Program-made: the position numbers and the translations under genes
Shown here: piece after piece, positions 9,087 through 41,071 of the stretch
Layout: every line of letters starts with the position of its first letter
Numbering within the stretch: position 1 is the stretch's first letter
Notes under the pieces: model-generated
Database searches by the model: none
Told to the model about the DNA's origin: nothing
What the model saw: only the letters and a program-made list of their open reading frames with translations
DNA from: Escherichia coli
GTDB lineage: Bacteria > Pseudomonadota > Gammaproteobacteria > Enterobacterales > Enterobacteriaceae
Assembly: GCF_003018255.1 (NCBI RefSeq)
Contig: NZ_CP027440.1
Direction: 5' to 3' (one strand)
DNA: 64,000 bases

Positions 9087-10262
9087 ATGCAAAAACTCAT
9101 TAACTCAGTGCAAAACTATGCCTGGGGCAGCAAAACGGCGTTGACTGAACTTTATGGTATGGAAAATCCATCCAGCCAGCCGATGGCCGAGCTGTGGATG
9201 GGCGCACATCCAAAAAGCAGTTCACGAGTGCAGAATGCCGCCGGAGATATCGTTTCACTGCGTGATGTGATTGAGAGTGATAAATCGACTCTGCTCGGAG
9301 AGGCCGTTGCCAAACGCTTTGGCGAACTGCCTTTCCTGTTCAAAGTATTATGCGCAGCACAGCCGCTCTCCATTCAGGTTCATCCAAACAAACGCAATTC
9401 TGAAATCGGTTTTGCCAAAGAAAATGCCGCAGGTATTCCGATGGATGCCGCCGAGCGTAACTATAAAGATCCTAACCACAAGCCGGAGCTGGTTTTTGCG
9501 CTGACGCCATTCCTTGCGATGAACGCGTTTCGTGAATTTTCCGAGATTGTCTCCCTGCTCCAGCCGGTCGCAGGTGCACATCCGGCGATTGCTCACTTTT
9601 TACAACAGCCTGATGCCGAACGTTTAAGCGAACTGTTCGCCAGCCTGTTGAATATGCAGGGGGAAGAAAAATCCCGCGCGCTGGCGATTTTAAAATCGGT
9701 GCTCGACAGTCAGCAGGGTGAACCGTGGCAAACGATTCGTTTAATTTCTGAATTTTACCCGGATGACAGCGGTCTGTTCTCCCCGCTGTTGCTGAATGTG
9801 GTGAAATTGAATCCTGGCGAAGCGATGTTCCTGTTCGCTGAAACACCGCACGCTTACCTGCAAGGCGTGGCGCTGGAAGTGATGGCGAACTCCGATAACG
9901 TGCTGCGTGCGGGTCTGACGCCTAAATACATTGATATTCCGGAACTGGTTGCCAATGTGAAGTTCGAAGCCAAACCGGCTAACCAGTTGTTGACCCAGCC
10001 GGTGAAACAAGGTGCAGAACTGGACTTCCCGATTCCTGTTGATGATTTTGCCTTCTCGCTGCATGACCTTAGTGATAAAGAAACCACCATCAGCCAGCAA
10101 AGTGCCGCCATTTTGTTCTGCGTCGAAGGCGATGCAACGCTGTGTAAAGGTTCTCAGCAGTTACAGCTTAAACCGGGTGAATCAGCGTTTATTGCCGCCA
10201 ACGAATCACCGGTGACTGTCAAAGGCCGCGGCCGTTTAGCGCGTGTTTACAACAAGCTGTAA
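9087..10262 (+). CDS. manA: mannose-6-phosphate isomerase, 391 aa from ATG at 9087
   Basis: ORF 9009..10262 opens at an upstream TTG; true start MQKLINSVQNYAWGSK. Confidence 0.93.
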   Translation: MQKLINSVQNYAWGSKTALTELYGMENPSSQPMAELWMGAHPKSSSRVQNAAGDIVSLRDVIESDKSTLLGEAVAKRFGELPFLFKVLCAAQPLSIQVHPNKRNSEIGFAKENAAGIPMDAAERNYKDPNHKPELVFALTPFLAMNAFREFSEIVSLLQPVAGAHPAIAHFLQQPDAERLSELFASLLNMQGEEKSRALAILKSVLDSQQGEPWQTIRLISEFYPDDSGLFSPLLLNVVKLNPGEAMFLFAETPHAYLQGVALEVMANSDNVLRAGLTPKYIDIPELVANVKFEAKPANQLLTQPVKQGAELDFPIPVDDFAFSLHDLSDKETTISQQSAAILFCVEGDATLCKGSQQLQLKPGESAFIAANESPVTVKGRGRLARVYNKL

Positions 10263-38733: not shown

Positions 38734-39843
38734 TCACGGGTTAGCGGGGAAAATAGCCCCGAGTACCGTCTCCTGGCTTGCGCCAGTGACGGAAGGCAGA
38801 TTTCCTGGTAATCCCGCAAGCGTCCGCCAGGCAAGCCAGGCGAAAGCCAATGCTTCCATGTCATCGCCACTAATGCCAACGGCATCAGTGGTGGTGACTT
38901 CTGTGCCTGGCAGTAATGCCGCCAGACGCGCCATGAGTAGCGGATTACGACTTCCTCCACCACATACCATCAATCGTTCACAGCCACCGCTCAACAAAAC
39001 TTGTTCAGAAATGGTCACGGCGGTGAGTTCTGCCAGTGTGGCCTGCACATCACGGGGATCAACACCCGGAAAATGGCGCAAATGGCGCTCCAGCCAGCCG
39101 TAGTTAAAGTATTCGCGTCCGGTGCTTTTCGGTGCGGGTTGCGAGAAATACGGGTCGCTGAGCATATTTTGCAGCAGTGGGAGAATAACTTTACCCGCCC
39201 GTGCCCACTCGGCATCTTTATCGTAAGGTTTACCGGCCTGACGCCAGATCCAGGCATCCATCAGCATGTTACCAGGACCGGTATCGTAGCCCCCAACCGG
39301 CTGCCCAGGAATGAGCAGTGACAGATTGGCGATGCCGCCAATATTGAGCACCATTCGTCGCTCGGTTGGGTGAGCCAGCAGCGCATGATGGAACGCAGGT
39401 ACCAGCGGTGCGCCTTGTCCTCCCAAGGCAATATCGCGACGGCGAAAATCACCGACAACCGTAATTCCGGTGCGTGCCACAATTTGATTGTTATCGCCAA
39501 TCTGTAAAGTGTGTGGTGCCACGCCCGTCGGTTCATGCCAGACGGTTTGACCGTGACAGCCGATCGCAACGATATCTCTCGCCTGCAGGTTTTGTTCCTT
39601 AAGCAAGGCATTGACCGCATCAGCAAAAAGTCGCCCGAGTTGAGTATCAAGCTGTCCAAACTGAGAAAGTGTAAGCTGCTGGCCCTGGCAAATATCCAGT
39701 ACAGCCTGTTTCAGAGACACCGGGATCGGCCAGCTCAAACTTGCCAGCTGTGCGACCCGGTGTTCATCAATTGTCGCCAACACAACATCAACACCATCAA
39801 GGCTGGTGCCTGACATAACGCCAATAAAGCGGCCCGATTTCAT
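38734..39843 (-). CDS. anmK: anhydro-N-acetylmuramic acid kinase
   Basis: 369 aa; recognised AnmK (YdhH). Confidence 0.9.
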
Positions 39844-39976
39844 AGTTCATCCTTTTTCAATCTGACGTTTGCGCACCACTCAAACATAAACTTTTCGTGA
39901 ATACCATGCGGAATGACCGATTTTTACCGTTGGTAGTAAAACATTATCTTCAAATCAATAATCATCATGAATGTTT

Positions 39977-39993
39977 TGTTTATAATTGGTTGA
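39977..39993 (+). promoter_or_regulatory. candidate PhoP box upstream of slyB
   Basis: TGTTTA-TAATT-GGTTGA, direct repeat with 5-bp spacer about 125 bp upstream of slyB ATG. Confidence 0.4.
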
Positions 39994-40116
39994 TCCTACT
40001 TTCATTATGATTTGCTCATATTTGGTAGAACATGTAACCATGGATTCACATATGCCATATACTTTGACCATGAGGGATGCTTGCGTGGCGTTTCATGGTG
40101 AACAGGAGATTTTTCA

Positions 40117-40584
40117 ATGATTAAACGCGTATTGGTTGTTTCAATGGTAGGTCTGTCTCTTGTCGGTTGTGTTAATAACGACACCCTGTCAGGGGATGTT
40201 TATACCGCTTCTGAAGCGAAACAAGTACAGAATGTCAGCTATGGCACCATCGTTAACGTACGTCCGGTACAGATTCAGGGCGGTGATGATTCCAACGTTA
40301 TCGGCGCAATTGGCGGTGCTGTTCTTGGTGGTTTCCTGGGGAATACTGTTGGTGGCGGAACCGGGCGTTCTCTGGCTACTGCTGCAGGCGCTGTTGCAGG
40401 TGGCGTAGCCGGTCAGGGCGTACAGAGTGCAATGAACAAAACGCAGGGTGTCGAGCTGGAAATTCGTAAAGACGATGGTAATACCATCATGGTGGTACAG
40501 AAACAAGGCAACACTCGTTTCTCTCCGGGCCAACGTGTCGTACTGGCCAGCAATGGCAGTCAGGTGACCGTTTCCCCGCGCTAA
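40117..40584 (+). CDS. slyB: outer membrane lipoprotein SlyB (glycine-zipper)
   Basis: 155 aa; lipobox LVGC; Gly-rich GxxxG repeats. Confidence 0.92.
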   Translation: MIKRVLVVSMVGLSLVGCVNNDTLSGDVYTASEAKQVQNVSYGTIVNVRPVQIQGGDDSNVIGAIGGAVLGGFLGNTVGGGTGRSLATAAGAVAGGVAGQGVQSAMNKTQGVELEIRKDDGNTIMVVQKQGNTRFSPGQRVVLASNGSQVTVSPR

Positions 40585-40592
40585 ATAAGTTT

Positions 40593-40620
40593 GCGTGTGG
40601 TCAGGTTACTGACCACACGC
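40593..40620. terminator. bidirectional terminator hairpin between slyB and slyA
   Basis: GCGTGTGGTCAG-GTTA-CTGACCACACGC perfect 12-bp stem. Confidence 0.6.
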
Positions 40621-40630
40621 CCCCTTCATT

Positions 40631-41071
40631 TCACCCTTTGGCCTGTAACTCAATGATATTATGCTCAAGTTTTGCGATGAGCTTAATCAGTTGTTCCAGT
40701 TCCTCTGCGGAGATGCCATGTAAAATTTCCGCGCGGGTTTTGTTAATAACAGCTTCCATTTCGCTGATCAGCGGCTCTGCCTTTTCCGTCAGTTTAATAC
40801 GTTTAGCCCGACGATCGCTGGCACAAGTTTGACGCGAAATTAACCCTTTTTCTTCCAGTTGGTCCAGAGTACGGACCAGTGATGGCTGCTCGATGCCAAT
40901 CGCTTTTGCCAGTTGAATTTGCGACTGGTCTGGAGGTAACTGATGGATATTGTGTAACGTAACCCAATGGGTTTGTGTTAACTCCAGCGGTTTCAGGCGA
41001 TGGTCTATCAGAGCACGCCATATGCGCACCAACCGTGCCAGATCAGAACCTAGTGGCGATTCCAATTTCAT
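40631..41071 (-). CDS. slyA: MarR-family transcriptional regulator SlyA
   Basis: ATG-initiated ORF of 146 aa; the commonly annotated 144-aa form would start at TTG 41065. Confidence 0.92.

Follow-up and report, generated by a model that had tools for sequence, protein, structure and literature searches.

The window analyzed here, i.e., the whole stretch of DNA under study, comprises 64,000 nucleotides of an Escherichia coli contig (NZ_CP027440.1). The open reading frames (ORFs) around the site described below match the K-12 order pdxH-mliC-anmK / slyB / slyA-ydhIJK, and according to the ORF list a spacer of 273 bp divides the minus-strand anmK ORF (start codon at 39843) from the slyB ATG at 40117. 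In K-12 the corresponding locus, b1641, carries the annotation 'outer membrane lipoprotein SlyB'. With 100% identity to E. coli K-12 MG1655 over the anmK-slyB intergenic region, the locus is the same as that of the PhoP-dependent slyB promoter of K-12, and no difference between the two was detectable. The features of the region are listed in Table 1. Downstream of slyB, a GC-rich inverted repeat of 12 bp was found at 40593-40620, between the convergent genes slyB and slyA; on the minus strand the scanner flagged it as terminator-like, and it likely acts as a bidirectional terminator.

Table 1. Features of the slyB promoter region (positions in the window; negative numbers are relative to the slyB P1 start).
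Feature	Position	Strand	Remarks
PhoP box TGTTTA-TAATT-GGTTGA	39977..39993	+	direct repeat, -41 to -25
Promoter-distal half-site TGTTTA	39977..39982	+	-41..-36; from sequence and conservation
Spacer TAATT, 5 nt	39983..39987	+	from sequence
Promoter-proximal half-site GGTTGA	39988..39993	+	-30..-25; G39992 is the sole departure from the consensus
Gap between box and -10, 12 nt	39994..40005	+	length fixed, sequence variable across species
-10 hexamer TATGAT of the PhoP-dependent P1	40006..40011	+	-12..-7
slyB P1 transcription start, +1	40018 (A)	+	published K-12 start, mapped via the identical intergenic region
slyB 5' leader, 99 nt	40018..40116	+	start of Kim et al. (2012) and sequence
TATACT, candidate -10 of a PhoP-independent P2	40058..40063	+	predicted from the alignment
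Shine-Dalgarno AGGAG	40104-40108	+	inside the slyB leader
slyB coding sequence	40117..40584	+	155 aa, outer membrane lipoprotein; ORF call

The first-pass annotation of this DNA had reported a direct hexamer repeat with a 5-bp spacer in this intergenic region and had proposed it as a PhoP box, and both its sequence and its coordinates proved exact. The repeat matches 11 of the 12 defined positions of the consensus (T/G)GTTTA-N5-(T/G)GTTTA; as had been noted, the one mismatch lies in the second half, where G39992 replaces the consensus T. The distance to slyB, estimated at about 125 bp, was measured as 124 bp from the end of the box to the ATG (140 bp from its beginning).

Within E. coli the promoter is present almost throughout the species. 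A promoter core of 66 bp was found in 5425 of 5426 complete genomes, the same number as for the whole intergenic spacer; the identity of the core is at least 99% in 4148 of them and 95-99% in the remaining 1277. The single recurrent SNP of the core that was examined in these genomes, G39973A, lies 4 nt outside the PhoP box. In the ST131 strain JJ2434 (NZ_CP013835.1), the sequence diverges 3 nt past the slyB +1, at the equivalent of window position ~40021, where an insert begins that contains a truncated wbuC, blaCTX-M-15 and ISEcp1. As this ISEcp1-blaCTX-M-15 unit lies just after +1, the PhoP promoter is parted there from its normal downstream DNA.

Architecture of the slyB promoter P1

One slyB transcription start (TSS) was recorded by Kim et al. 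(2012; PMC3415461, supplementary file 2), at position 1717801 (+) of K-12 NC_000913.2, with 193 reads and a 5' UTR of 99 nt; the upstream sequence given for it is TGAATGTTTTGTTTATAATTGGTTGATCCTACTTTCATTATGATTTGCTCA, ending in ...TATGATTTGCTCA. In the identical sequence of the window this start is A40018, which puts the box at -41 to -25, across the -35 position of a start determined by experiment. The distance to the transcription start, which the first-pass annotation had left open together with the chance that the site might lie far from the promoter, is thereby settled by the published start, and the box lies at the promoter. On the slyB strand, the hexamer TATGAT begins exactly 12 nt past the end of the box. 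No usable -35 hexamer was found for P1 (best match 2/6), and a scan with the sigma-70 consensus called no promoter on the plus strand at slyB, as expected for an activator-dependent promoter without a -35.

This arrangement corresponds to the promoter architecture I of Zwir et al. (2012; PMC3335776), in whose description one box in direct orientation overlaps the -35 and is separated from the -10 downstream of it by 12 nt or, in one case, by 11. At slyB we found a direct repeat, a single box in direct orientation, the phasing of 12 nt, the overlap with -35, a poor -35 and, as described below, conservation. For architecture I the same authors predicted class II activation, which was demonstrated for mgtA. 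The boxes of mgtA and phoP, described there with class II activation, consist of the same direct repeat placed 12 nt upstream of the -10; both of their halves contain TTTA, whereas the proximal half of the slyB box is off-consensus at its fifth base in nearly all species. From mgtA we infer that a class II contact would be made at slyB as well.

The closest parallel is the slyB promoter of Salmonella enterica, which in PMC3335776 likewise shows a single direct box, 12 nt to a TATGAT, 6 nt from there to +1 and no real -35. The leader is 100 nt long in Salmonella vs. 99 nt here. The Salmonella box, TCGTTTAAGATTGGTTAAT, reads CGTTTA-AGATT-GGTTAA compared to TGTTTA-TAATT-GGTTGA in the window, and the sequences of the spacer and of the 12-nt gap differ as well. 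For this Salmonella promoter, Zwir et al. (2012) described S1 mapping, a PhoP-dependent product and a DNase I footprint of PhoP-P. PhoP dependence of the start at 40018 in E. coli is probable from the parallel with Salmonella; the TSS of Kim et al. (2012) was mapped neither under low Mg2+ nor in a phoP mutant.

Evidence for PhoP binding has also been published for other enteric bacteria. Table 5 of Lin et al. (2018; PMC5775216) gives the 19-nt sequence ttGTTTAtaattGGTTgAt as the slyB PhoP box of Shigella flexneri; it is identical to the box of the window, and only the species label differs. In the same paper, a fragment of the Shigella slyB promoter was shifted in gels by PhoP-P in a concentration-dependent manner, and slyB expression dropped to 0.41 (microarray) and 0.19 (qRT-PCR) in a phoPQ deletion mutant; the footprints described there concern other promoters, not slyB. 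The slyB promoter of Yersinia pestis was analyzed by footprinting and primer extension (Perez et al., 2009; PMC2650801). That paper reports predicted slyB boxes in every enteric species it covered and credits the finding of direct PhoP regulation of E. coli slyB to Minagawa et al. (2003, J Bacteriol 185:3696), whose work is also cited in PMC3335776. In E. coli the SlyB protein is induced through PhoQ, and Xu et al. (2020) used it as a PhoQ-dependent read-out. No PhoP ChIP-seq data from E. coli that cover slyB were found in the literature search.

Conservation of the box and a candidate second promoter

The conservation of the promoter was analyzed in SlyB-encoding loci from 80 species belonging to Escherichia, Salmonella, Citrobacter, Kluyvera, Enterobacter, Lelliottia, Kosakonia, Atlantibacter, Mangrovibacter, Mixta and other genera; together with the window, these gave a comparison set of 81 upstream regions. 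In almost every locus the best box within 300 nt upstream of slyB was located 135-147 nt before the ATG and was followed, 12 nt past the match, by a TAnnnT hexamer. A box matching at least 9 of 12 positions, combined with TAnnnT at 12 nt and placed between -130 and -150 from the ATG, was present in 77 of the 81 upstream regions, compared to 0.12% of shuffled upstream regions with the box and TAnnnT at -130 to -150. In the four loci below the threshold, as in the Mixta species, the alignment still shows a recognizable variant, for example TATTGA-N5-TGTTTA followed by 12 nt and TATGCT in Mixta.

Since a profile anchored on the box makes use of the motif itself, the region from -230 to +30 of 80 distinct upstream regions was also aligned with MAFFT, blind to the motif. 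The conserved columns were GTTTA (39978-39982), GTT (39989-39991) and A (39993) of the box, and, in the -10 hexamer, T, A and the last T. The 5-nt spacer was variable, as were the 12-nt gap and the flank just upstream of the box. The GTTTA of the distal half-site was nearly invariant in this alignment and reached 1.65-2.0 bits in the box-anchored profile. At the fifth base of the proximal half-site (39992), 59 of 75 distinct orthologous promoters carried A, 7 carried G and 5 carried C; the consensus T, which the scoring of the sites favored, was present in only 4. The sequences are phylogenetically non-independent. The off-consensus base at this position looks conserved, judging from these counts, and it might tune the affinity for PhoP.

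The same alignment revealed blocks within the slyB leader (40026-40081) that were conserved as strongly as the PhoP box. The columns corresponding to 40058-40063 read a perfect TATAAT in 72 of the 80 distinct upstream regions, with a TGACC-like -35 block 17-18 nt upstream; the TATACT of E. coli is weaker than the TATAAT of most species. Scanning 39800-40700 against Rfam, at E-values up to 1, matched no family, and folding of 40018-40130 gave no excess stability over shuffled sequences (z = 0.20). An ORF starting at ATG 40052, whose stop overlaps the slyB ATG, was considered as a leader peptide and rejected; in most of the 80 species the frame is interrupted, hence the conserved leader blocks are not coding. 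With neither an Rfam match nor excess stability nor a conserved ORF in the leader, a promoter, P2, is the best reading of these blocks. For both Salmonella and E. coli, slyB was described as having two starts, of which one is PhoP-independent and stronger in high Mg2+ (PMC3335776), and the conserved leader element is probably this PhoP-independent second promoter of slyB.

It may be asked whether PhoP, besides activating P1, occludes a PhoP-independent promoter, in which case the box would double as an operator. The E. coli spacer does create a perfect TATAAT at 39981-39986 with a 3/6 match to the -35 located 16 nt upstream, and a PhoP-independent start that gains strength in high Mg2+ is what such an arrangement might produce. 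However, among the 80 loci only E. coli and its closest relatives carry this TATAAT, the spacer being variable elsewhere, and the Kim et al. (2012) data contain no TSS near 39993. Moreover, according to PMC3335776 high Mg2+ raised the level of the PhoP-independent product in a phoP mutant too; a response to Mg2+ that persists in this mutant cannot be explained by occlusion through PhoP. As a candidate for the second promoter, the leader element at 40058-40063 is also conserved far better. We consider a double role of the box as operator very improbable.

If P2 is indeed a promoter, the control region of slyB could be more than a simple PhoP switch, with the combination of P1 and P2 itself under selection and providing a basal level of SlyB and, at the same time, a raised threshold for induction by PhoP-P. 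This idea draws on the off-consensus base at 39992 (T in 4 of 75) and on the near-perfect candidate sigma-70 promoter (TATAAT in 72 of 80) inside the P1 leader, and we regard it as a speculative proposal that is rather unlikely to hold. Were it true, the two-promoter design would tune when SlyB, a lipoprotein that protects the envelope and damps PhoP, comes on.

The divergent gene, chance matches and the role of the box

As the box lies in the intergenic region shared by slyB and anmK, 134 bp from the anmK start codon, a site for PhoP or another regulator of the OmpR family could in principle mainly serve the divergent gene. A second conserved block, ATACCATGCGG...GATTTTTAC at 39901-39927, is situated 50-75 bp upstream of the PhoP box, and its minus strand includes TAAAAT (39925..39920); this block could be an anmK promoter, as which it would speak for anmK as the target. 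Against this, the repeat is in direct orientation for slyB and is phased to the slyB -10 and TSS, the data of Kim et al. (2012) list no TSS for anmK in the intergenic region, and anmK is not named in the passages on the PhoP regulon of PMC5775216, PMC2650801 and PMC3335776. A site that mainly serves anmK is, in our judgment, extremely unlikely.

The frequency of the motif was also assessed across the 64-kb window. Matches to the box with at most one mismatch numbered 2 compared to 0.95 expected, and two or more occurred in 22 of 100 shuffles; with at most two mismatches, 21 matches were observed compared to 15.6 expected. The bare motif is thus statistically unremarkable in 64 kb (not significant). 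The composite of a box with at most one mismatch, 12 nt and TAnnnT, in contrast, was present once in the window, at slyB, and 300 first-order Markov simulations gave an expectation of 0.017 per window. What sets the slyB site apart from chance, decisively, is the geometry of the promoter and not the count of the motif. The other match with one mismatch, CGTTTAGCGCGTGTTTA at 10233-10249, covers the last codons at the 3' end of an ORF of 417 aa; the ATG of the next ORF (10363) follows after ~115 bp. A check of the sequence found no -10 hexamer 12 nt downstream of it, and because of its position within the end of a coding ORF and this missing -10 it was rejected as a PhoP box and judged a chance match.

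That the slyB site, too, is a chance match to a short and degenerate consensus in an AT-rich intergenic region, devoid of any regulatory role, is suggested by the roughly one match with at most one mismatch expected per 64 kb and by the evidently non-functional match at 10233, but it has practically no probability left in view of the exact spacing of 12 nt to a -10 hexamer in front of a mapped TSS, the single composite, the position conserved in 77 of 81 upstream regions and the published binding of PhoP to a fragment whose listed box is identical and to orthologous promoters.

We are therefore highly confident that 39977-39993 is the known PhoP box of the PhoP-dependent E. coli slyB promoter P1, in the layout of a class II activator. 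The sequence, the geometry and the conservation were computed in this study, and the start site, the binding of PhoP and the dependence on PhoP were taken from publications. The box had been assigned to slyB by the first-pass annotation as well, and the phasing to the TSS, the conservation, the published binding of PhoP-P and the phoPQ-dependent expression all bear this out. It is a real and functional site, already known; as a textbook element it adds no new biology. Its value here is that of a positive control, a real transcription factor site located from raw sequence.

In the proposed mechanism, low Mg2+, acid pH or cationic peptides would be sensed by PhoQ, leading to the phosphorylation of PhoP. 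A dimer of PhoP-P would then bind the direct-repeat half-sites at -41..-36 and -30..-25 and, standing in for the missing -35, would recruit RNA polymerase to the TATGAT 12 nt downstream. Transcription starting at A40018 would yield a slyB mRNA with the 99-nt leader and the AGGAG Shine-Dalgarno sequence. Across all ten enteric species examined in PMC2650801, slyB and phoPQ are the only conserved direct targets of PhoP, which makes the slyB box the input to a circuit that is both ancient and of physiological importance.

A further box in the window, TGTTTA-GAAAC-GATTGA, was observed at 2597-2613, in direct orientation and with two mismatches, upstream of the ATG of rstA (~2670), a gene reported as PhoP-regulated in PMC5775216. 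It is located 23 nt upstream of a TATTGT -10, compared to 12 nt at slyB, which amounts to one further helical turn; this spacing refers to a recorded TSS at window position 2652 that is represented by only 2 reads. The architecture of the rstA promoter is different from that of slyB.
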